DNA from: Rhodospirillales bacterium
Lineage (GTDB): Bacteria; Pseudomonadota; Alphaproteobacteria; Rhodospirillales; 2-12-FULL-67-15
DNA: 64,000 nucleotides
Direction of reading: 5' to 3'
Assembly (NCBI GenBank): GCA_016872535.1
Contig: VGZQ01000002.1
Span: 9,514 to 73,513, forward strand
Part shown: positions 5,287 through 33,143 of the stretch, piece by piece
Layout of the letters: every line of letters starts with the position of its first letter
Position numbering within the stretch: position 1 is the stretch's first letter
The notes under the pieces: model-generated
Seen by the model: the letters and a program-made list of their open reading frames with translations, nothing else
The model's database searches: none
Told to the model about the DNA's origin: nothing
Program-made: the position numbers and the translations under genes

Positions 5287-5315
5287 TACATACTCTGTCG
5301 GCACCCGACTGGCAA
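5287..5315 (-). promoter_or_regulatory. Candidate sigma70 promoter for lysC
   Basis: Minus strand TTGCCA-N17-TATGTA; the spacer holds a GTCGG-gtg-CCGAC inverted repeat. Pattern match only. Confidence 0.35.
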
Positions 5316-5324
5316 TAAGCCGAC

Positions 5325-6266
5325 ATGGCCGCTCCCCGCACCCGCTTGCGCCCGACGCCCCGGCGCTACCCCTCGACGCGAGACGAGGACGAAATCGCCC
5401 GCTTCGAGGCCGACGCCGGGGATTGGTGGCGATCCGACGGCGCCTTCGCGGCGCTGCACCGCCTCAACCCGGTCCGCATCGCCTTTATCCGCGACGCCGT
5501 CTTGGCGCACTTCGGGCGCTCCGGTAGGGGCGCGTCATCCAAATATGCGCGCGGGGATTCGCCCGCGCGCCCGTTGAAGGGCCTCGACGTGCTCGATGTC
5601 GGCTGCGGCGGCGGCATCGTGTGCGAGCCGCTCGCCCGGCTCGGCGCGCGCGTGACCGGGATCGACGCCGGCGCCGACAACGTGCGCGCAGCCGCCCTGC
5701 ACGCCCGCGCCTCGCGTCTCGACATCACCTATCGCACCGCCGCGCCCGAAGACTTGATTCGCGACAAGGCCCGCTTCGACGTCGTGCTCAACATGGAGGT
5801 GATCGAGCACGTCGCCGAGCCGGGCGCGTTCGTCGAAACCTGCGCCGCGCTGGTGCGGCCGGGCGGGCTGATGGTGCTCGCCACCCTCAACCGCACGCTG
5901 AAGTCGCTGCTGCTCGGCAAGATCGCGGCGGAATACGTGCTCGGCTGGATACCGCCCGGTACCCACGATTGGAGCAAGTTCGTCCGGCCGGACGAACTGG
6001 CGGGCATGCTTGCGAACGCGGGGTGCGTCGCCATCCGCCGGGCGGGTGTCGCGTTCGATCCGTGGCGGGGCGAATGGCGTCTCGCCGACGATCTCGGCGT
6101 CAATTACATGATGGCGGCGGCGAAAGAGAGAAAGCGCGATCCAGCGCGGCGGCGCGGGCCGGCGCGGCCTGTTCAGCTGTCGCGACGGGGACGGCCCGGC
6201 AGGGGAAAAACCTCAATGCCCTCGTCGTCGAGGCGGCGGGTGTCGTCCGGGCTGGCCTCGCCGTAG
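5325..6266 (+). CDS. ubiG: Ubiquinone biosynthesis O-methyltransferase, with 17-aa insertion and extended C-terminus
   Basis: EIARF...WW...LHRLNPVRIAFIR, VLDVGCGGG, EVIEHV, GTHDWSKF, NYMM; divergent from lysC as is usual in Alphaproteobacteria. Confidence 0.93.
   Translation: MAAPRTRLRPTPRRYPSTRDEDEIARFEADAGDWWRSDGAFAALHRLNPVRIAFIRDAVLAHFGRSGRGASSKYARGDSPARPLKGLDVLDVGCGGGIVCEPLARLGARVTGIDAGADNVRAAALHARASRLDITYRTAAPEDLIRDKARFDVVLNMEVIEHVAEPGAFVETCAALVRPGGLMVLATLNRTLKSLLLGKIAAEYVLGWIPPGTHDWSKFVRPDELAGMLANAGCVAIRRAGVAFDPWRGEWRLADDLGVNYMMAAAKERKRDPARRRGPARPVQLSRRGRPGRGKTSMPSSSRRRVSSGLASP
5516..5570 (-). repeat. Palindromic element inside ubiG (antisense orientation)
   Basis: GCGCGCGGG-GATTCG-CCCGCGCGC at 5547-5570. 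The reverse complement of 5516-5570 matches 9986-10040 at 47/55 positions without gaps (hand count). Confidence 0.85.
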
Positions 6267-6619
6267 ATGCCGCGCTCCGGCTTCTTTTCGCCGTAATGAA
6301 TGCGGCGGGCTTCCTCGGGAAAGGCGTCGCCGACGTAATCGCAGTTCTCCTCGACGTGACGGCGGATCTTGCCGAACGCCTCCGCCACTTTGCCGGCGAT
6401 GGTGTGGGCGGCGTCATCCTTGGACTCCACATCGCCGCGGCTTCCGACCACGCCCCTGCCGATGACGTTGGGCGCCATCGGCGCCTTGGCGATCTTGGTC
6501 GAGCCGCAAAACGGGCATTCGACCGCGCCCTTGCGATTCTGCGCCTCGAAGCCGGCGCTGCCCTTGAACCAGGCTTCGAACTCGTGATTTTTCGCGCAGC
6601 GGAGTTGATAAAGGATCAT
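6173..6619 (-). CDS. DUF1178 family protein
   Basis: MILYQLRC...HEFEAWF, CPFCGS, KAPMAP, DYVGDAFPEEARRIHYGE, IYGEAS, EGIEVFPLP. Confidence 0.92.
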   Translation of the reverse strand: MILYQLRCAKNHEFEAWFKGSAGFEAQNRKGAVECPFCGSTKIAKAPMAPNVIGRGVVGSRGDVESKDDAAHTIAGKVAEAFGKIRRHVEENCDYVGDAFPEEARRIHYGEKKPERGIYGEASPDDTRRLDDEGIEVFPLPGRPRRDS

Positions 6620-6702
6620 GGTCCGAAAACTTGGCATATCCGGGGGTGTTTTAAAATGGGAAATGTCCGGGACGCCGGAACGGATTTCCGACCATCACCG
6701 TG

Positions 6703-7830
6703 TCAGACGGCTCCGATCCACGCCATAAGGTCCCGCGCGCGGTGCTTCCATGTGTGATGTTGCGCCTGCCAAGCCCGACCGTTGGCCGCGATCCGCTCCG
6801 TCTCCCGATTGCGCGCGAGCCGACGGCCGATGTTGTCCGCCGCGTCGGCCATGTCGAGTCGAATAACCGCCTCCTCGGGGGCGTGCGCATCGAACCAGCG
6901 CGTCGGCACGGTCGCGGCCGCCGCGCCCGCGGCTTGGGCGTCGAATACCCGCTCGTGGGTTCCGTGAAATCCGGTGCAGGCGTTGAGCACGATCTTCGCG
7001 CGCGCCATCAACGCCTGAATCTCGTCCGCCGGACGCACGCCGAGAAAAACGAAACCGCAGTCCGCGTGACGCGCGGCAAACGCGTCCCATCCGCCCCCGG
7101 CCACGGTCACCGGCAGCCCTCGAAGCGACTCCAACAGTCGCCAGCGCGCATGGGCTCGCAAATAAACGTCGAGCGTCGCGAAGTACGGATGGATCGCGTA
7201 GGGGTTCCTGACATCGAGCCGGCCGCCGAGAATCTCTTCGATGGCCGCGGTCAACGGGCGCAGCGGCGCGGCGAGGTGGTTTTCGAGCACCGCGTTCAAT
7301 TCCGCGGCGACCTTGGCGCCGTGTCGGATCCAGCTTTCCCGCGTCCGTTCCGGATTCTCGCATCCGGTGGCCGGAAACAGGAGCGCAATGTCGCGCTCCG
7401 CCCACGGCCGGCCCGATCCCGGCTCGGCCGCGTGCGGCAAATGGCGAACCGCAATCGCCGGCGCGACGGCATGCCAATAGTCGAGATCGCAATCGGACAC
7501 CGTAGTGACGATCCGCCGTCGGATCGGAACCAAAACCTGATCGGCGTAGCCGACCAGCGGGTCGAAATAGATCGAAACCAACGGAAGCCCGATCCGGTCG
7601 AAGAGGTTGTTCTCGGCCCTGAGATCGAGACCGAGACCGGTCGCGCTGACGAAGAAATCCGCTTCGCCGCCTGCGACCGCCCGCCGCAACGTTTCGGCGA
7701 AGTCCGGCCGGCGAACGTCGAGCAGGGACGCACCCACGCCGCAAGCGGCGAGGCCCCGCGCCAATCCCGCCAGCATGCGTGCCACGTTGCCGTGGAGTAC
7801 GTCGCCGGTGAACAGTATGGCCTTCTTCAT
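6703..7830 (-). CDS. Glycosyltransferase-like protein (GT-B, CgeB/Glyco_trans_1_2-like C-terminus)
   Basis: C-terminal VTVAGGGW...MARAKIVLNACTGFHGTHERVFDAQAAGAA...HTWKHRA pattern. Start at ATG 7830. Confidence 0.65.
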   Translation of the reverse strand: MKKAILFTGDVLHGNVARMLAGLARGLAACGVGASLLDVRRPDFAETLRRAVAGGEADFFVSATGLGLDLRAENNLFDRIGLPLVSIYFDPLVGYADQVLVPIRRRIVTTVSDCDLDYWHAVAPAIAVRHLPHAAEPGSGRPWAERDIALLFPATGCENPERTRESWIRHGAKVAAELNAVLENHLAAPLRPLTAAIEEILGGRLDVRNPYAIHPYFATLDVYLRAHARWRLLESLRGLPVTVAGGGWDAFAARHADCGFVFLGVRPADEIQALMARAKIVLNACTGFHGTHERVFDAQAAGAAAATVPTRWFDAHAPEEAVIRLDMADAADNIGRRLARNRETERIAANGRAWQAQHHTWKHRARDLMAWIGAV

Positions 7831-7920
7831 TCGTAGGGTTTCGAACCGTGAACTCCGACCGTCGGGGAGTATATTCGGCGGCAGGCGAAATCGTGCATAA
7901 TGATGATGGTCCCGCCCGAC

Positions 7921-8604
7921 ATGATGCCCGAATCCGCAAAGACCGACGACGAGCTCCGCGCCCGCCACCTGCGCGTGGCCGAGCCGTCCCCCTGGGTCGC
8001 GCGTTTCGCCCACCTGGTTCCGGCCAAGGGCTTGGTGCTCGATCTCGCCTGCGGCGGCGGACGACACGCGCGCTATTTCGCCGGGCGCAGCCACCCGGTA
8101 GTGGCGCTCGACCGCGACACGACGGCGCTCAGGGAATCCGCTCCGGCCGGCGTCGAAATCCTCACCGCCGATCTCGAGAACGGCGCGCCGGTGTTCGATC
8201 CGCCCGGTCCGCTCGCCGGACGCGCGTTTGCCGGCATCGTTGTCGTCAATTATTTGTATCGCCCGCTTTTGCCCCGGCTACTCGCCCTGCTCAATCCCGG
8301 CGGCGCGTTGATCTACGAAACCTTCGCGCGCGGCAACGAACGCTTCACCCGGCCGCGCAATCCCGATCACCTGCTGAAGGCGGGCGAGCTGCTGGAATTC
8401 GCGCGCGGCAGGCTCCAGGTCGTCGCCTACGAGCACGGGATAGTCGAGGGCGATCCGATCCCCGGCGTCAAACAACGCCTCGCCGCCGTCAACGACCTCG
8501 GACGTTCGACCCGCGCGGCGGCGGGCGAATCCCTGCCGCCAAATGACAAAGGCCGCGAGGATTCGCTCGCGGCGGGCGAGCCGGAACCGCATCCGCTCGC
8601 TTAG
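7921..8604 (+). CDS. Class I SAM-dependent methyltransferase (TehB-like)
   Basis: PSPWV, VLDLACGGGRH, IVVVNYLYRPL, LIYETFARGNERFTRPRNPDHLLKAGELL. Alternative start at 7900. Confidence 0.85.
   Translation: MMPESAKTDDELRARHLRVAEPSPWVARFAHLVPAKGLVLDLACGGGRHARYFAGRSHPVVALDRDTTALRESAPAGVEILTADLENGAPVFDPPGPLAGRAFAGIVVVNYLYRPLLPRLLALLNPGGALIYETFARGNERFTRPRNPDHLLKAGELLEFARGRLQVVAYEHGIVEGDPIPGVKQRLAAVNDLGRSTRAAAGESLPPNDKGREDSLAAGEPEPHPLA
8517..8579 (+). repeat. Inverted doublet of CGAATC-loop hairpins inside the methyltransferase 3' end
   Basis: GGCGGCGGG-CGAATC-CCTGCCGCC (8517-8540) and GCCGCGAG-GATTCG-CTCGCGGC (8552-8573); 11-bp direct repeat GCGGCGGGCGA at 8518 and 8569, 51 nt apart. Confidence 0.75.
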
Positions 8605-9428
8605 GAAAACTCCCGATCGCTCGAAATCGCCGGCACCTTGGCGCGCGCCTCGGCAACGCGGGCCGGGTCGATGCGCGCGACCACTATGCCCGGCTCCTCG
8701 CCGCCGTCGGCGAGCACTTCGCCCCACGGATCGACGATCAGCGAATGGCCATAGGTCTTGCGCCCGTCCGCATGCTCGCCGCATTGGGCCGGAGCGAAGA
8801 CGAAGGTGCCGTTTTCGATCGCGCGCGCGCGCAGCAACACGTGCCAGTGCGCCCGTCCGGTCGGCCGGGTGAAGGCCGCCGGCACCGAAAAGAAGTCCGC
8901 GCCCCTTTTCGCCAGGGCGCGGTAGAGCTGCGGAAAGCGCATGTCGTAGCAGACGGTCATGCCGAGCCGCCCCCACGGCAGGTCCGCCGTCACCGCCCGA
9001 TCGCCGGGGCGATAAGTGCGCGATTCGTGGTAGCGCTCGCCCTCGCCCAGATCGACGTCGAACATGTGAATCTTGTCGTAGCGGGCGGCGACGGTTCCGT
9101 CGGGCGCAAGCAGGAACGAGCGGTTGGCGACGCGCTCCGGCTCGCTCTCGGTCTTGACCACCAGCGAGCCCGCGAGCAGCCACGCCCCGGTTTTGCGCGC
9201 AAGATCGCGAAACGCCGCCAATGCCGGGTCTTCCGCCTCGGGCCGCGCCTTGGCCAGCACGGCGTCGCGCTTCGGCTCCAGCATGTTGACGATTTCCGGC
9301 AGCAGAATGAAATCGGCGCCCCGGTCGCGCGCGCGTCGGACCAGATCGACGGCGACGGGGATATTAATGTCGGGTTCGCGCGCCGAGGTGATCTGTACGC
9401 AGGCGACGGTGAAAATTGCTCCGGGCAC
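8601..9428 (-). CDS. Carbon-nitrogen hydrolase (Nit1-like)
   Basis: LLPE, YDKIHMFDVD, GMTVCYDMRFP, VPAAFT, HWHVLLRARAIEN, TYGHSLIVDPWG (Glu-Lys-Cys triad). Confidence 0.95.
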   Translation of the reverse strand: MPGAIFTVACVQITSAREPDINIPVAVDLVRRARDRGADFILLPEIVNMLEPKRDAVLAKARPEAEDPALAAFRDLARKTGAWLLAGSLVVKTESEPERVANRSFLLAPDGTVAARYDKIHMFDVDLGEGERYHESRTYRPGDRAVTADLPWGRLGMTVCYDMRFPQLYRALAKRGADFFSVPAAFTRPTGRAHWHVLLRARAIENGTFVFAPAQCGEHADGRKTYGHSLIVDPWGEVLADGGEEPGIVVARIDPARVAEARAKVPAISSDREFS

Positions 9429-9444
9429 TTGGTCGGCCCTCGCC

Positions 9445-9708
9445 TCAGGCCGCGAGGCCCAACAGCGTATCGAGCTTGCCCTGGCGATCGAGGGCGTGGA
9501 GATCGTCGGACCCGCCGATGCTTTTGCCGTCGATGAAGATTTGCGGCACCGTGCGCCGGCCTTCCGCGCGCTTCAGCATTTCGTCGAGCTTGCCCGGCGT
9601 GACGTCCACCTCGTATTCGGTGTAGGCGACACCCTTCTTGTCGAGCAGCGCCTTAGCCCGCCGACAATAGGGGCAGAGCGCGGTGGTGTAGATTTCGATC
9701 TTGGGCAC
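9445..9708 (-). CDS. grxC: Glutaredoxin 3
   Basis: GTG start 9708; PKIEIYT..CPYC..AKALL...TVPQIFI..IGGSDDL. Confidence 0.95.
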   Translation of the reverse strand: MPKIEIYTTALCPYCRRAKALLDKKGVAYTEYEVDVTPGKLDEMLKRAEGRRTVPQIFIDGKSIGGSDDLHALDRQGKLDTLLGLAA

Positions 9709-9788
9709 GGTTTTCTCCTTCCGCTCGGTCGCTTGATATAGACCGGGCCCCCGCGCCAATCTAGGGGGGCCGGCCGCAGGAGCCCCCG

Positions 9789-10994
9789 ATGTCCAGCCGC
9801 CTCGTGATCGTTTTTTGCCTGGTTCTGCCGCTCGCCTGGACGGGCGCGGCTTTCGCCGATCCCGTGGTCGGGCCGAGGCCGCAGGCGGTGGACGATATCC
9901 CGAGCGAAGGCGCGCCCGGCCACCGGGTGGAAACCTGGATCGGGGGGCTGGAGGCGCCCTGGTCGCTCGCGTTTCTGCCCGACGCGCGCGCGGGCGAATC
10001 CCCGCGCGCATCATCGAATGATGGGCCCCTATCGGGGCGCGCCCTGGTCAGCGAGCGGCCGGGTCGTATCCGCCTGATCCAAAACGGCGCGCTAAGGCCC
10101 GAACCCTACGCCCGGATCGACGTCGCCACCGGCGGCGAAGGCGGCCTGATGGGCTTGGCGCTCCATCCCGATTTTCCGCGGGCACCTTTCGTCTACGTCA
10201 TGCACACCTATTTTCCGGGGCCGCTGCCGGCGTTCGCCCGCCGCAACAAGGTCATCCGCCTCCGCCATCTCGGCGATACGGGCGCGTTCGATCGCGTCGT
10301 GCTCGACGGCATTCCGGGCGCCCTCAACCACAACGGCGGGCGGATCGGCTTCGGCCCCGACCGCATGCTCTACGTAACGACCGGGGAAATCTACGAAGCG
10401 GAGCTGGCCCAGGACCCCGCTTCCCTCGCCGGAAAAATTCTGCGCGTCACCCCCGAAGGCGACGTTCCCGCCGACAATCCCATTTCCGGATCGCCGGTCT
10501 GGTCGCTCGGCCACCGCAACCCGCAAGGGCTCGCCTGGCAGCCGGCGAACGGGGACCTGTTCGCCTCCGAGCACGGACCGTCGGGCGAATTTGGCCTCGG
10601 CGGCCACGACGAAATCAACCTGATCCTCCGGGGAGCCAATTACGGCTGGCCGCGCGCCGTCGGCGCGCCGAACGTGGCGGCCTACCGCGATCCGCTGGTG
10701 GTCTGGAAGACGCCGACCACGCCGCCCTCGGGCATCGCCTTCTGGCGCGGCGATCTTTACGTCGCGACGCTCCGCAGCCAAGCGCTGATGCGCATCGCGC
10801 TCGCCCGCGCCGGAAACGATTACCGGATCACGCGCATCGAGCGCTGGTTCGCGCACGGTGACAATCGTCCCGGGCGGCTGCGCGACGCCGTCGCCGGGCC
10901 CGACGGGGCGCTGTACGTGCTCACCAACAACCGCGACGGCCGCGGGCGGCCGCGCGAGGGCGACGACCGGATTCTGAGAATCACTCGACCCTGA
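9789..10994 (+). CDS. PQQ-dependent sugar dehydrogenase family (GSDH) protein, exported, with 17-aa insertion
   Basis: Signal peptide; GLEAPWSLAFLPD, GEGGLMGLALHPDF, HNGGRIGFGPD, GKILR, GHRNPQGL, DEINLI..GANYGWP, GRLRDAVAGPDGALYVLT. Confidence 0.92.
   Translation: MSSRLVIVFCLVLPLAWTGAAFADPVVGPRPQAVDDIPSEGAPGHRVETWIGGLEAPWSLAFLPDARAGESPRASSNDGPLSGRALVSERPGRIRLIQNGALRPEPYARIDVATGGEGGLMGLALHPDFPRAPFVYVMHTYFPGPLPAFARRNKVIRLRHLGDTGAFDRVVLDGIPGALNHNGGRIGFGPDRMLYVTTGEIYEAELAQDPASLAGKILRVTPEGDVPADNPISGSPVWSLGHRNPQGLAWQPANGDLFASEHGPSGEFGLGGHDEINLILRGANYGWPRAVGAPNVAAYRDPLVVWKTPTTPPSGIAFWRGDLYVATLRSQALMRIALARAGNDYRITRIERWFAHGDNRPGRLRDAVAGPDGALYVLTNNRDGRGRPREGDDRILRITRP
9986..10042 (+). repeat. Palindromic element inside the GSDH gene (sense orientation)
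   Basis: GCGCGCGGG-CGAATC-CCCGCGCGC-ATCATCGAATGATGGGCCCCTATCGGGGCGC; GCGCGC direct repeat at 9986 and 10037, 51 nt apart. Confidence 0.85.
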
Positions 10995-20496: not shown

Positions 20497-21042
20497 TCAC
20501 CATCCGCCGCTAAAGTCGAGCTTGCCGACCATGCCCGCCTCGTAATGGCCGGGAATGGTGCAGGCGAATTCGAGTTCTATCGCCTTGGAGAATTTCCAGA
20601 CCAGCTCGGCCTGCTTGCCCGGCTCAACCAGCACGCTGCCGGTTTCCGGGCCGTGGTCGTGCGCGGCCATGCCCATCTTGGCGTGGTCCATCTTCATCAT
20701 GTCCTTGTTGATCCCGGTCGCCGTAATCATGCCGTGGTCCATCATCATCTTCATCATGTCCTGGTGTTTGGCGTGGTCGTTGGGCTGGCCGAGCGCGAAC
20801 TCGTGCAAAAGATCGCCCTTGTTGACGATGACGAAGCGGACCGTCTCGCCCGCCTTCACGGCGACGGTTTCCGGTTCGTAAAGATTGTCCTTCATGATGA
20901 TGGTGACGGTGCGGGTCGTGGACGTGGCTTTGGCCACTTCGCCGAAGGGGTGTTTCTGGGCCGGGCCGGCGAGGGCGGCGCCGGCCCCAAGCGTTATGAG
21001 GCCGAAAACGGCGGCGACGAAACTTGAGCGAATCATATGCAT
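20497..21042 (-). CDS. Cupredoxin (CopI-like) with Met/His-rich insert
   Basis: Signal peptide; LLHEF, HQDMMKMMMDHGM...MMKMDHAKMGMAAHDHG, FACTIPGHYEAGM type-1 copper loop. Confidence 0.92.
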   Translation of the reverse strand: MHMIRSSFVAAVFGLITLGAGAALAGPAQKHPFGEVAKATSTTRTVTIIMKDNLYEPETVAVKAGETVRFVIVNKGDLLHEFALGQPNDHAKHQDMMKMMMDHGMITATGINKDMMKMDHAKMGMAAHDHGPETGSVLVEPGKQAELVWKFSKAIELEFACTIPGHYEAGMVGKLDFSGGW

Positions 21043-21156
21043 GACGCGTGCAATCCTTGTCTGGTGTTGAAGTCGAACGGATGGCGCTCACGCGCGAGCT
21101 GCGGCCCGGCCGTTCAAGCCCGGCACGGCTAAAGACGCGCGAAGAGCGGATTTAGA
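21043..21156 (-). promoter_or_regulatory. 114-nt structured leader, copy A (between uORF stop and cupredoxin ATG)
   Basis: 108/114 identical to 23330-23443 (hand count); contains GAACGG/CCGTTC and GCTC/GAGC nested stems and the SD AAGGA. Confidence 0.8.
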
Positions 21157-21504
21157 TCAGGAAGCGCGCGGAGGGCGCAGCGGCGGCGCGGACGAGCCGA
21201 GCGGAACGAAGGTGTCGGGCGCCAGCACCGAAACGGTGGCTGGCGCGCGGAGGACGGTTCCGGACGGAATCGGCGTCACGGCCGAAAACGAGCAGCCGGG
21301 CGGGCAGCAGCGGTCGATGCCGCCAGCAGAGTTTTCGTCGCACGAACCCAGCAGGGCTTCGGCATCGCTCCCGACGTGCGCGGACGCGGAAACTATCGGC
21401 GAGCCTGCCGTTTCGTGCCCGGGCGCGGCAACGCCGGCCAAGCCCCACAGCAGGGTCGCGGCGACCGCAAAGGCGGAAACGATTTTACGGAACCGGCGCG
21501 ACAC
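21157..21504 (-). CDS. Small exported-type leader ORF 2 (CC-x3-C, C-terminal PPLRPPRAS); CutF/CruR-like candidate
   Basis: GAGGA SD then GTG 21504; MSRRFRKIVSAFAVAATLLWGLAG signal-like N-terminus, DRCCPPGCSF, SSAPPLRPPRAS. Confidence 0.75.
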   Translation of the reverse strand: MSRRFRKIVSAFAVAATLLWGLAGVAAPGHETAGSPIVSASAHVGSDAEALLGSCDENSAGGIDRCCPPGCSFSAVTPIPSGTVLRAPATVSVLAPDTFVPLGSSAPPLRPPRAS

Positions 21505-21668: not shown

Positions 21669-23261
21669 TCACGTCCTCACGGCGCGAAGGGTCGCCCAGA
21701 GGGCGGCGGCAAAGCCGAGAACGCCGAGCAGCGGCACGTCGGCATAGTCGCCGAAGACGTGAGGGCCGATGTCGTACTGGAGGAGCAAGGAAGAAGCGAC
21801 GAATAAACCCATCGACACCAGCGCGAACGCCACCCGCCGGCCGCCGCGCTCCACGGCGTCCTCGACGCGATCGATACCGTGAAGACGCAAGCCGAACTCC
21901 GGTCTTCCTCCTTCGCCCTGGAGCCGGTGGAGCCAGGCGCCAAGCAGCGCCGGTAAATCCTCCGCGGTCATTGCGGCTTCGCTCTTCAGCCGCTCCATCT
22001 TGCCGGTGCTCTGCGATTGCCGGAGGGTAGTCTCGAATATCTTTTCGCCCTTGGCCAACAGTTCCTTGACGAGGATGTATTCGGGATCGAGGCTTCGTAC
22101 CGTGCTTTCGATCAGAAACATGGTGCGCAAAAGGACGAGCAGATTAGGCGGAATGGTCACACTTTCGCCGCGCCCGATCCGCAAGATTTGCAGAAAGGCC
22201 TGGGCGATCGACAGATCGTTGAGCGGCAACGCGGCGTAATCGGCCATGATCTCGTCGAAGGCGCGCCGGAATTCCGCGCGATCGACCGCCGCGTCGATCA
22301 CGCCGAGGGCAATCGCCGTGTCGAGCAGCCAAGCCGAGTCTTGATGGGCGAATGCCTGCGTGAACAGCGCAAGATTTCGACGCGTTGCGCGGTCGAGATA
22401 GCCGGTCAGACCGAAATCGTGAAAGCAGATGCGTCCCGAGTTCATGATAAACAAATTGCCCGGGTGCGGATCGCCGTGGAAGACGCCGAGCACGAAGAAC
22501 TGGTGGAGATAGGCGTCAACGAAATTATCGGCCAAGCGCCGTCTGTCTTCGTCGTTAATCGGATCGTCAACGCGGCGGCCACTGCTCATCTCCTGCACCA
22601 GGACTGACTCGGCGCCGAGTCCGTCGATCACTGTCGGTACATGCACCGTCTTCCAATCCTTGAAGGCCTCCTTGAAACGCCGGGCGTTGCGTGCCTCCCG
22701 CCGGAAGTCGGTCTCGTTGCGGAGATTGGTCCAGGTCTCCTCCACCAGGCGAAGCGGGTGGTAGCGGCGGAGACGAGGGGCCAGAAGTTCAGTCGCGCGC
22801 GCGAACATCCGCAGCATGCGCATGTCCCGGCGGATTTGATCCTGAATCCCCGGTCTGCGCACTTTGACGACCACCATCCGTCCGTCGTGGAGGCGTGCTT
22901 TGTGCGCCTGCGCGATGGAAGCGGCGGCGAAGGGGACCGGATCGAATTCCGCAAACAACTCGGCGATCGGCCGGCCGAGCGCCGTTTCGATCTCGCGTAT
23001 CGCCTTCGCGGCGGGAAAAGGATTTACATGCTCATGAAACCGTTGCAGAGCCTTGATGTAGTGGTCCGGCAGCATTTCCTGGTGCAAGCTCAGGATTTGG
23101 CCGAACTTGACGAACGTCGTGCCAAGCCGTTCGAGGGTCACGGCGAATCGCTCCGCCAGCGTCGGCAAACGCCGGGGACGAAACAGGTACAGATAGAGGG
23201 CGTGAACCGCGAAATTCGCCGCCGCGAACCCAACGCGCAGCAACCGGCCGATAAACATCAT
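21669..23261 (-). CDS. ABC1/UbiB/AarF family atypical kinase
   Basis: LERLGTTFVKFGQILS, FAAASIAQAHKA, VVVKVRRPG, DFRREA, VFHGDPHPGNL, HDFG, C-terminal TM helices. Start re-placed at ATG 23261. Confidence 0.9.
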   Translation of the reverse strand: MMFIGRLLRVGFAAANFAVHALYLYLFRPRRLPTLAERFAVTLERLGTTFVKFGQILSLHQEMLPDHYIKALQRFHEHVNPFPAAKAIREIETALGRPIAELFAEFDPVPFAAASIAQAHKARLHDGRMVVVKVRRPGIQDQIRRDMRMLRMFARATELLAPRLRRYHPLRLVEETWTNLRNETDFRREARNARRFKEAFKDWKTVHVPTVIDGLGAESVLVQEMSSGRRVDDPINDEDRRRLADNFVDAYLHQFFVLGVFHGDPHPGNLFIMNSGRICFHDFGLTGYLDRATRRNLALFTQAFAHQDSAWLLDTAIALGVIDAAVDRAEFRRAFDEIMADYAALPLNDLSIAQAFLQILRIGRGESVTIPPNLLVLLRTMFLIESTVRSLDPEYILVKELLAKGEKIFETTLRQSQSTGKMERLKSEAAMTAEDLPALLGAWLHRLQGEGGRPEFGLRLHGIDRVEDAVERGGRRVAFALVSMGLFVASSLLLQYDIGPHVFGDYADVPLLGVLGFAAALWATLRAVRT

Positions 23262-23329
23262 TTCATGGCATCCATGTCTGCAGGGGAAGCATCCGATTGA
23301 AAGGTGAACTTCGAGCGGATCGTACGCAT
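23258..23329 (-). CDS. 23-aa mini-ORF MRTIRSKFTFQSDASPADMDAMK, putative translational coupler
   Basis: ATG at the same position as the cupredoxin ATG in leader copy A; first codons resemble MHMIRSSF; its TGA overlaps the kinase ATG (ATGA). Confidence 0.55.
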   Translation of the reverse strand: MRTIRSKFTFQSDASPADMDAMK

Positions 23330-23443
23330 GACGCGTGCAATCCTTGTCTGGTGTTGAAGTCGAACGGATGGCGCTCGCGCGCGAGCTGCGGCCCGGCCGT
23401 TCAAGCCCGGCGCGGCTCAAGACGCGCGCAAAACGGATTTAGA
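23330..23443 (-). promoter_or_regulatory. 114-nt structured leader, copy B
   Basis: Direct repeat of 21043-21156, same length, 6 substitutions. Confidence 0.8.
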
Positions 23444-23830
23444 TCAGGAAACGCGCGGAGGACGCAAAGGCGGCGCGGATGAGCGGAGCGGAACGAAAGC
23501 GTCCGGCGTCAGGGCTGGAATGCCGGATGATTCGTGAAAAACGATTCCCGAAGGTGCGGCTGTCATCGCCGAAAAGGCGCATTCCGGCGGACAGCAGCGG
23601 TCGAATCCGCCGCCGTAACCGTGGAGGGAATTTCGGTCGCACGAACCCGGGGCGGCGTCGACGACGTGTCCGCCTTGCGCGGACGCAGCGATTCCGCCGG
23701 TCGACGCTATCATCGGCGAACCCGTCATTTCGTGTCCTGGAACAACTGCGCCTGCGAATCCCCAAAGCAAGGTCGCAGTGACCGCGAACATGGAAACGAT
23801 TCGCCGGATTTGGCGCGGCAGACGGATCAA
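23444..23830 (-). CDS. Small exported-type leader ORF 1 (CC-x3-C, C-terminal PPLRPPRVS); paralog of leader ORF 2
   Basis: GGAGAG SD then TTG 23830; RRIVSMFAVTATLLWGFAG, DRCCPPECAF, SSAPPLRPPRVS. Confidence 0.75.
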   Translation of the reverse strand: MIRLPRQIRRIVSMFAVTATLLWGFAGAVVPGHEMTGSPMIASTGGIAASAQGGHVVDAAPGSCDRNSLHGYGGGFDRCCPPECAFSAMTAAPSGIVFHESSGIPALTPDAFVPLRSSAPPLRPPRVS

Positions 23831-32411: not shown

Positions 32412-33143
32412 TTGCTGATCCCGCTGCACGACGAGAACCCGCTCCGCCACATCCGTTTCCAGTACGTCACGGTCGCGATCATCGCCGTGTGCGTCGCGGT
32501 GTTTCTCTACCAATCGACGCTGGACGTCCGCGCTGAGCGGGTGTTCGTGATGAGCTATGGCGCGATTCCGGCGGCCGTGTTCGGCCTCGCCGAGCGCGGG
32601 GCTGAGATCTCGGCGATCCCGCCGTCCGTCACGCTTCTCACCAGCATGTTTCTGCACGGCGGCTTCATGCACCTCGCCGGCAACATGCTGTTCCTGTGGG
32701 TGCTCGGCGACAACGTCGAGGACGCCATGGGCCACGCGCGCTACGTCGCGTTCTATCTGTTGTCGGGCCTCGCCGCGGCGCTGGCGCACGCCGGGCTCGA
32801 TCCCGTCTCCAAGATTCCGATGATCGGGGCAAGCGGCGCGATCTCCGGCGTCATCGGCGCCTACTTGATTCTGCACCCCAAGGCGCCGATCAAGACTCTC
32901 GTTCTGCGCATGATCGTTTATCTCCCGGCCTGGGTGGTGCTGGGCCTCTGGTTCGCGTTCCAGCTGATCAACGTGGCGATGACGCCGAAGGGCGCGGGCG
33001 GCGTCGCGTGGTGGGCGCACATCGGCGGCTTCGTCGCCGGTGCGATCCTGATTTTCCTGTTCCGCAAGCGCGACGTGACGCTGTTCGACCGCGGCTACGT
33101 GCCGAAATCACGCCGCCGTTCCATCATTCCCAATTCGGAGTAG
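32412..33143 (+). CDS. Rhomboid family intramembrane serine protease
   Basis: [51 protein letters not shown]. Confidence 0.93.

Follow-up and report, generated by a model that had tools for sequence, protein, structure and literature searches.

The question raised by this locus is why two unrelated genes of one bacterium carry nearly the same short palindromic sequence, in opposite orientations and in both cases within an intact reading frame. The genes are ubiG and a gene for a pyrroloquinoline quinone (PQQ)-dependent glucose/sorbosone dehydrogenase (GSDH), and they lie in a stretch of 64,000 nt, here called the window, from contig VGZQ01000002.1 (positions 9,514 to 73,513) of a Rhodospirillales bacterium (assembly GCA_016872535.1). 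An original prediction, made from the letters of the window, saw in the shared sequence a coding-compatible miniature mobile repeat that adds loops to proteins, and the analysis reported here supports it. We consider it quite probable that the two sequences are copies of a dispersed, non-autonomous selfish DNA repeat that resembles sequences of the repetitive extragenic palindromic (REP) kind.

The stretch at 9986-10040 on the plus strand and the reverse complement of 5516-5570 are identical at 47 of 55 positions without gaps, a figure given in the original prediction and reproduced on realignment, and a repeat finder extends the similarity to 59 nt at 85 %. The host genes had been named correctly: ubiG (5325-6266, plus strand) matches TIGR01983 (E=2.3e-76) and the GSDH gene (9789-10994, plus strand) matches PF07995 (E=1.6e-72). 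Searched with nhmmer, a profile of the family described below places copy 1, a net insertion of 51 nt in ubiG, at 5516-5571 on the minus strand (model positions 2-54, E=4.9e-12), and copy 2, a net insertion of 51 nt in the GSDH gene, at 9986-10041 on the plus strand (model positions 3-55, E=1.6e-13). Each lies between the short direct repeats that had been reported 51 nt apart, namely GCGCGC at 9986 and again at 10037, a spacing of exactly 51 nt, and GGGCGC/GCGCGC in ubiG, where five of the six positions match. In copy 1, hairpin 1 (5547-5570, minus strand) has a 9-bp stem, GCGCGCGGG/CCCGCGCGC, closed by the loop CGAATC, and hairpin 2 (5516-5533, minus strand), recognised from its fold and the family alignment, is GCGCCCC-TACC-GGAGCGC with one stem mismatch. 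In copy 2, all on the plus strand, hairpin 1 (9986-10009) is followed by a linker, ATCATCGAATGAT (10010-10022), that exceeds the canonical AT-rich linker by 3 nt and can fold into a small hairpin of its own, and then by hairpin 2, which folds as GCCCC-TATC-GGGGC (10025-10038). Hairpin 1 was identified in both copies from its fold and from the exact 24-mer GCGCGCGGGCGAATCCCCGCGCGC that they share. Copy 1 reads (R)SGRGASSKYARGDSPA(R) in the ubiG frame and copy 2 reads (A)RAGESPRASSNDGPLSG(R) in the GSDH frame, and the inserts encoded in the two host open reading frames (ORFs) are SGRGASSKYARGDSPAR and ARAGESPRASSNDGPLS, respectively; the two orientations do encode different peptides, as had been stated.

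A profile search of all the DNA fetched gave at least 187 distinct full-length copies, as expected of the multi-copy family that had been proposed, and a further 60 copies of hairpin 1 alone. The consensus is gg-GCGCGCGGG CGAATC CCCGCGCGC - ATTAAATGAT - GCGCCCC TA(T/C)C GGGGCGC - gc, that is, hairpin 1 (24 nt), an AT-rich linker of about 10 nt and hairpin 2 (18 nt), with stems of more than 75 % G+C and a canonical length of 48 nt, or 16 codons. This exact length was found in 147 of the 187 copies. Both window copies are 51-nt variants with a longer linker and, hence, the predicted element length of 51 nt holds for these two but not for the family, the canonical unit of which is 48 nt. The consensus folds as two independent hairpins joined by the linker (z=-4.9 as RNA and -4.3 as DNA, relative to shuffles), and in the minimum free energy and centroid structures the inner stems (GGG/CCC versus CCC/GGG) and the loops differ between the hairpins. 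Head-to-tail arrays with a period of exactly 48 nt are present at six loci (L132, L176, L194, L020, L023 and L038; L numbers designate loci and P numbers orthologues), with 3 to at least 6 units in those at L132:13079-13338, L176:6750-6995 and L194:1038-1153. The L176 array appears to be intergenic, and four reading frames are open through its 5 units. Some copies contain nested inserts (L026:1181-1260, L202 at about 3491, L047, L071 and L119); a 27-nt piece within the loop of hairpin 1 produces 75-nt in-frame elements (RAGESSC.GTP.GVTRA..), and an extra CCCCGC-CTCC-GCGGGG hairpin is found inside hairpin 2 of some copies, which suggests that there are further tiny repeat families in the clade.

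Carriers were sought with the exact inner 20-mer of hairpin 1 in one genome per species (GTDB) and, likewise, in JGI metagenome contigs, giving at least 120 loci in the species genomes and at least 112 in the metagenome contigs. Lake-water metagenomes, the Ga0194120-Ga0194132 series, are among the sources of such contigs. Among the genome matches listed, about 100 of 120 come from four related metagenome-assembled genomes (MAGs), CAYPQV01 ('uncultured Hyphomicrobiales'), MIAC01 (Rhodospirillales bacterium RIFCSPLOWO2_12_FULL_67_15), CAYIQU01 and SHWG01 (Rhodospirillales, Lake Baikal deep water). Contig 1 of CAYPQV01 (L007) shares synteny with the window at 86-90 % identity, the identity of the match is 78 % for MIAC01 and 71 % for CAYIQU01, and the carriers therefore belong to one clade. 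The repeat is scattered through a few uncultured freshwater and groundwater alphaproteobacteria that are free-living and have a high G+C content. Two partial matches in IMG/VR include only hairpin 1 and are uninformative on carriage by phages.

The window genome is about 68 % G+C and rich in GCGC, and MAG assemblies are fragmentary, so that a chance similarity between low-complexity sequences or an assembly artefact has to be weighed, but we regard the probability of either as practically negligible. The 24-mer GCGCGCGGGCGAATCCCCGCGCGC, common to 5547-5570 on the minus strand and 9986-10009 on the plus strand, is found nowhere else in the 64 kb, and dinucleotide-preserving shuffles lead to an expectation of 0.01 occurrences, with two matches in none of 100 shuffles. 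The same 48-nt unit, complete with AT-rich linker and hairpin 2, is also present in independent NCBI, JGI and ENA assemblies. Single matches to the 20-mer in other phyla and taxa, among them Streptomyces, Saccharopolyspora and Pseudomonas, include neither the linker nor hairpin 2; they were attributed to chance and set aside.

If the family is mobile, sites should exist in both filled and empty form. Nine orthologous filled/empty pairs were compared flank to flank, and in seven of them the gain is exactly 48 or 51 nt. The gain is 51 nt for the window UbiG copy and L033 and 48 nt for the other clean pairs, while pairs L041 and L106 align less cleanly. The window and the CAYPQV genome, which is about 87 % identical to it, differ at three sites in whether a copy is present. 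At the UbiG site, filled in the window, the syntenic L007 sequence is empty with a gap of 51 nt and reads CAT TTC GGT CGC CCG TTG (HFGRPL), continuing as HFGRPLKG, and the alignment of UbiG orthologues P0002, P0006 and P0016 likewise indicates a clean absence of the insert. For GSDH, LPDG-RALVSERPG or a close variant was found in 27 of 30 orthologues, including those of cultured Stella and of distant taxa, and in this alignment the window insertion site (site 1) is filled only in the window, P0121 and P0127. The structure PDB 2ISM also aligns to the window GSDH with a gap of 17 residues at the insert. The original prediction had anticipated clean 17-codon indels in both genes and had taken the GSDH junction for the usual family motif; both expectations were borne out. 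As the distant orthologues and PDB 2ISM have no insert, the inserts are the derived state, and the element is mobile, or at least indel-polymorphic, in agreement with the mobile repeat that had been proposed.

The window itself includes three empty target sites. One is a second site in the GSDH gene (..IALARAG^NDY.., site 2; 10802-10811, plus strand), which holds a 48-nt copy in the L007 and L029 orthologues. Another, at 33101-33116 (minus strand), is occupied at the orthologous position in L058 and L049, again by a 48-nt copy. The third, at 9150-9159 (minus strand), is in a CN-hydrolase gene (8601-9428, minus strand) and is filled in L072, whereas the empty L029 allele reads GTGCGCGCGGACGA. 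Across relatives the GSDH gene has the element at three different sites, two of them in addition to the window insert site. The UbiG loop is occupied in the minus orientation in the window and in L124 (with 15 extra nt in L124), in the plus orientation in frame b by 48 nt in L122, and in the plus orientation in frame c by 51 nt in L123, and is empty in L007. This loop has, thus, received at least three independent insertions, a few nucleotides apart and in both orientations.

Some other features of the GSDH orthologues were noted. P0124, P0128 and P0123 include an 11-residue in-frame insert of the AASESSRPSIS type after WFA, and in the CAYPQV lineage an unrelated 26-residue in-frame insert (L007:5940-6027) is located exactly at GSDH site 1. 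P0121, which is 99 % identical to window positions 9789-10994, is labelled 'Acidimicrobiia bacterium' by NCBI; its close relatives are all alphaproteobacterial MAGs, and its contig was probably mis-binned.

In order to be assigned to a gene, a copy had to satisfy a frame criterion based on the G+C content of third and second codon positions (GC3/GC2) and be crossed by an uninterrupted frame. At least 35 of the 187 copies (19 %) are in-frame inside genes on this basis and 152 are not; 35 is a lower bound, as known cases near the ends of genes (L029 twice, L007 and L058) fail the criterion. A Pfam domain spans the insert in 17 of the 20 non-window host ORFs tested, and exceeds the profile length by about 16 residues. 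The hosts matched are MutS, RecG, MetH, CobD, MnmA, LysA, asparagine synthase (AsnB), Ada/Ogt, an M24 aminopeptidase, Ldh_2, DAO, two Ala_racemase_N proteins, a GT2 protein, a Mur ligase, a TPR protein and a DUF2125 protein; these are enzymes of the cytoplasm and periplasm with no relation to one another. The lengths of the in-frame copies are 48 (n=30), 51 (n=3) or 75 nt (n=2), and all 35 are divisible by 3, in keeping with the claim that the element sits in-frame in unrelated genes in both orientations; among the 152 other copies, 17 have a length that is not divisible by 3 (versus 0 of 35, Fisher p=0.046). Since 48 nt is canonical in every context, divisibility by 3 is a property of the element and not only of the survivors. 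Among the non-coding copies, no orientation or position bias relative to the neighbouring genes was found, and the non-intragenic copies among the first 102 examined include 31 adjacent to the 3' end of a gene and 35 adjacent to a 5' end. The solitary copies of hairpin 1 (24 nt, or 8 codons) are in-frame inside genes in 13 of 60 cases, for example at L137:5716, L231:6756, L031:5856 and L072:2909, and read RAGESPRA or ARGDSPAR.

The consensus is free of stop codons in three of the six frames. Frame +b (RAGESPRAxxDAPLSGR) is used by 18 of the in-frame copies, frame -a (RPDRGASxxARGDSPAR) by 12 and frame +c (ARANPRAHxMRPYRG) by three, with one copy each in frames -b and +a. This strong skew, with 30 of 35 copies in two hydrophilic readings, would fit an alternative in which the inserted residues serve the protein as a functional module, for instance a loop for binding or regulation, that is under selection at the protein level and the DNA similarity is a by-product, and the RGD in ARGDSPAR is superficially like an adhesion motif. 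However, we consider this very improbable. The two orientations place unrelated peptides in the same UbiG loop, the hosts are unrelated, close orthologues function without the insert, and copies of this DNA are no rarer outside genes (152 of 187) than inside them. Moreover, copies in coding sequence are as close to the consensus as those elsewhere, and the combination of unrelated peptides with no extra conservation in coding copies indicates that conservation is at the nucleic-acid level, DNA or RNA, as had been proposed.

Alternatively, the element might be removed or skipped, by an intron-like excision or by ribosomal bypassing of the kind known from T4 gene 60 and mitochondrial 'byp' elements, leaving the protein unchanged. 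The size of about 50 nt, the GC-rich hairpin at the 5' side and the matching GCGC-containing codons that flank the insert are all reminiscent of known bypass elements. But all the intragenic copies found are in-frame, stop-free and a multiple of 3 nt long, and neither bypassing nor splicing demands this. The window copies have no stop codon after a take-off codon. Ten of the first 102 copies have coding sequence on both sides that is not continuous, and in none of these are the two sides the same gene in the same frame, so no copy in need of bypassing or splicing was found among them; in L073, the sole copy with a stop inside it, the element seems to lie at the end of a gene and to provide its stop codon. 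This alternative is, accordingly, extremely improbable, and the dispersed selfish repeat remains the preferred reading.

Where the inserts fall in the two proteins was examined using AlphaFold models. In GSDH, with a mean predicted local distance difference test (pLDDT) score of 81, residues 67-81 score below 50 and the insert is between strands 57-62 and 84-89, at the LPDG turn of a propeller blade; the Pfam match begins only past the insert. In UbiG (mean pLDDT 74), residues 67-78 score below 50 and the insert separates the N-terminal helix (42-63) from strand 88-92 (beta-1), just ahead of the S-adenosylmethionine-binding motif VLDVGCGGG. The E. coli UbiG structure 4KDC matches the window UbiG to either side of the insert without bridging it, and the match is split in two. 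The models predict that both inserts lengthen loops as disordered segments, at turns that join regular elements, which tallies with the surface loops of the original prediction and is a further point against a functional module. At the 3' end of ubiG (6130-6266) there is also a C-terminal tail of about 37 residues that is disordered in the model (pLDDT<50 at 277-313). The tail sequence (..KTSMPSSSRRRASS.VASP) is kept across relatives and is encoded antisense to the 3' end of a convergent DUF1178 gene (6173-6637, minus strand) with an overlap of 94 nt, which is also called in L122, L123 and L124; conservation of the tail probably reflects the DUF1178 frame.

The junctions provide information on how the copies are made. 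In the family logo the left boundary is sharp but the right flank decays over about 10 nt and repeats the start of the element, GCGCGCGGGCGAA. When compared to element positions 9-18, the 10 nt after non-tandem copies match at 4.23 of 10 positions, as against 3.06 of 10 after GGCGCGC elsewhere (p=2e-14), and the repeats at the junctions range in length from about 4 to 13 nt. Parts of this motif are present in the empty alleles, namely GGGCGA for UbiG, CGCGCCGG for GSDH site 2, GCGCGCGGACGA for the CN hydrolase of L029 and GGGGCGAATCGG for L112. Together with the filled/empty pairs, these data show that new copies arise at the level of DNA, that the sites where they insert are centred on GCGC and similar to the 5' end of the element, and that exactly one unit is gained per event.

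A possible source of such copies is a classical REP, or an inverted REP doublet (REPIN), on which a REP-associated tyrosine transposase (RAYT) or a TnpA of the IS200/IS605 type acts in trans, recognising the hairpin in single-stranded DNA and inserting beside GCGC, and short GC-rich hairpins present in high copy number as singlets (the 60 with hairpin 1 only), doublets and arrays, insertion beside a short specific sequence and the intragenic REPs documented in other bacteria (PMC3733652) would all be explained by it. Still, we think it unlikely. The REP tag, GTAG or CGTC, is found at neither end of either hairpin; in an alignment of 97 sequences the ends are GG|GCGCGCGGG (5') and GGGGCGCGC (3'), and the only GTAG lies within the loop of hairpin 2 in the TACC variant. 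The two hairpins are independent and differ, rather than being inverted copies of each other, and they do not form the one long hairpin of a REPIN. A fixed cleavage site predicts something other than variable junction homology of up to about 13 nt, and the bias to positions downstream of genes seen for REPs is missing. A phmmer search (E<=10) with E. coli RayT, one distant seed protein, found no match among 11,668 six-frame ORFs from about 1.6 Mb (0.89 + 0.73) around more than 250 copies, which samples part of each genome. Hence, the RAYT or IS200/IS605-type transposase that the original prediction suggested looking for beside the hairpin was not found with this seed in this DNA, and none of the inverted copy pairs 1-3 kb apart that were listed suggested a flanked transposase.

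Variable junction homology, a gain of exactly one period, arrays with the same period and recurrent hits on look-alike sites are all more easily explained if copying is guided by the hairpin and by microhomology, using existing copies or tandem arrays as the source, than by a transposase with fixed cleavage. We therefore lean, tentatively, towards hairpin- and microhomology-guided copying over a dedicated RAYT-type transposase. In genes the target sites would be GCGCGCGG-like. As the unit is a multiple of three and three frames are free of stops, insertions in permissive surface loops of essential proteins would not be lethal; such copies would be translated through as Gly/Pro/Ser/Arg-rich loops of 16-17 residues, predicted to be disordered, and purifying selection would clear the remaining insertions. 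In UbiG and GSDH themselves, the insert is most likely a passenger, neutral or nearly so, and not a functional module.

A more far-reaching version, which we regard as rather doubtful, is that the element is not a usual transposon but a unit of 16 codons that seeds itself and needs no dedicated transposase in order to spread. A 3' end that has stalled or broken and shares short homology with GCGCGCGGGCGAA (Arg-Ala-Gly-Glu codons) would prime on a copy or an array, exactly one 48-nt period would be copied and the end would then return to its original template. Self-seeding would account for the one-period gain, the variable junction homology and the repeated independent hits on the same loops and, if it is true, the element would keep supplying the essential enzymes of a free-living bacterium with new disordered loops.

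Several points weigh against the reading of these sequences as a mobile selfish repeat that is translated within genes. No enzyme or donor was found and, hence, we infer the mode of spread from the copies themselves. The sequence is GC-rich, so the junction repeats are partly expected by chance, and there are only nine filled/empty pairs. The GC3/GC2 and open-frame criterion used to define coding context is a heuristic that stood in for a gene finder, and translation of the inserts, too, is deduced from the fact that the frame is kept. Of the non-coding copies, 96 % have frame -b open, yet it is used only once (p=8e-5), and therefore more than stop codons shapes frame usage; the skew could be due to selection for a hydrophilic peptide or to a target-phase preference, which these data do not separate. 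Covariation in the hairpins says nothing either way, as 95 % of cells are paired and there are five double changes, the stems hardly varying. Finally, copies were retrieved using an exact 20-mer of hairpin 1 and the count would leave out any divergent subfamilies.

Two other observations on the window concern different sequences. A 1.28-kb segment (6644-7926) is absent from the otherwise syntenic CAYPQV01 contig (L007), and the long ORFs in it, 6695-7939 (minus strand) and 6700-7836 (plus strand), have no Pfam match. A direct repeat of about 400 nt (20990-21420 and 23277-23720; 83 % identity overall and >95 % across about 160 nt) has its copies immediately upstream of two minus-strand genes, for a cupredoxin (20497-21042) and an ABC1/UbiB-type kinase (21669-23420). 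It has no Rfam match and an ordinary folding energy (z=0.26), and may be a shared promoter or leader.

To our knowledge, the Rickettsia palindromic elements (RPEs) are essentially the only well-studied example of selfish DNA within coding genes, there being otherwise only scattered intragenic REPs. The family in the window is a second dense system of this type, in free-living high-GC hosts and with a 16-codon unit. Filled and empty alleles in close relatives, and the same loops hit in both orientations, amount to natural replicates with which one can ask how essential enzymes such as UbiG, MutS, RecG and MetH cope with the random insertion of 16-residue loops, whether any insert acquires a function and by what route hairpin repeats spread when no RAYT is evident. 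The inserts also have a practical consequence, as gene callers and domain models will see the inserts as split or lengthened domains.

How, then, does the family compare with known systems? A comparison of 5300-10300 with Rfam at E<=1 gave no match that overlaps the element, the two weak ones there, far below gathering scores, lying elsewhere in ubiG, and in the window as a whole every family stays under its gathering score; the core sequence is found in no paper in the searchable literature. Very small dispersed hairpin repeats of cyanobacteria reportedly insert both into genes and into one another (Elhai et al. 2008, Genome Research; cited in PMC3116915 and PMC3733652), and nested insertions are shared with the 75-nt variants seen here, though those repeats belong to other sequence families and hosts. 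Transposable elements of the miniature inverted-repeat type (MITEs) have terminal inverted repeats of 15-30 bp that derive from an insertion sequence, a length of 70-300 bp and a fixed target-site duplication, whereas the termini here share only GCGCGC, the length is 48 nt and the junction repeat is variable. The enterobacterial RU, ERIC and YPAL sequences, small mobile sequences found inside genes (Delihas 2007; PMC2759123), are likewise small non-autonomous repeats with open frames that are occasionally intragenic and supply new peptide segments, but they are MITE-like units of 100-170 bp with terminal inverted repeats and it is exceptional for a copy to lie inside a gene. Coding sequence with mobile GC-rich hairpins of about 30-55 nt inserted in it is also known from the GC clusters and 'byp' elements of yeast mitochondria and from T4 gene 60 (10.1101/2022.08.31.505936); these inserts are skipped by the ribosome and can be out of frame, whereas the intragenic copies of the window family keep the frame and are presumably translated.

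The likeness to the REP, BIME and REPIN group is closer. These are GC-rich stem-loops of 20-40 bp in high copy number, present as singlets, doublets and clusters (Di Nocera et al. 2013, PMC3733652; Bertels & Rainey 2011, PMC3116915), and the hairpins of 24 and 18 nt, with at least 187 full and 60 solitary copies, fit this description. REPs with GTAG/CGTC tags have been found inside genes of Opitutus terrae, Thauera, Xanthomonas and others, notably repair genes (Di Nocera et al. 2013; PMC3733652). Some copies in both systems are within ORFs, where REPs encode 20-30 residues, and both include repair genes among their hosts, MutS, RecG and Ada/Ogt here and uvrA, uvrB, recB and dnaE2 there. Unlike REPs, which are mainly extragenic, the window family has a unit fixed at 16 codons and a much larger intragenic share (at least 19 %).

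The original prediction cited the in-frame palindromic repeats established in Rickettsia as the precedent. The RPEs proved apt but the precedent is wider, as intragenic REPs are known from several free-living bacteria (PMC3733652). RPE-1 to RPE-10 are dispersed gene-less palindromes, a large share of which lie in-frame in unrelated housekeeping genes, are read through and are tolerated at the protein surface, and, as for the window family, no transposase is known for them (PMC10969869, PMC3733652). In-frame read-through in many unrelated genes is what was found here, in 35 copies and with Pfam domains that span the insert. However, RPEs are AT-rich sequences of about 100-150 bp that are known only from Rickettsia, which are obligate intracellular bacteria, whereas the window family is 48 nt long with GC-rich stems, consists of two short hairpins that are separate from each other, is arranged in places as arrays with a period of 48 nt and is found in free-living high-GC hosts; a relationship in sequence is not expected. 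Though in-frame intragenic repeats are a known phenomenon, in the form of RPEs and intragenic REPs, the family and its 16-codon architecture appear to be undescribed. By analogy, rather than by membership, the family may be regarded as the GC-rich, free-living counterpart of the RPEs, set apart from them by size, composition and host.

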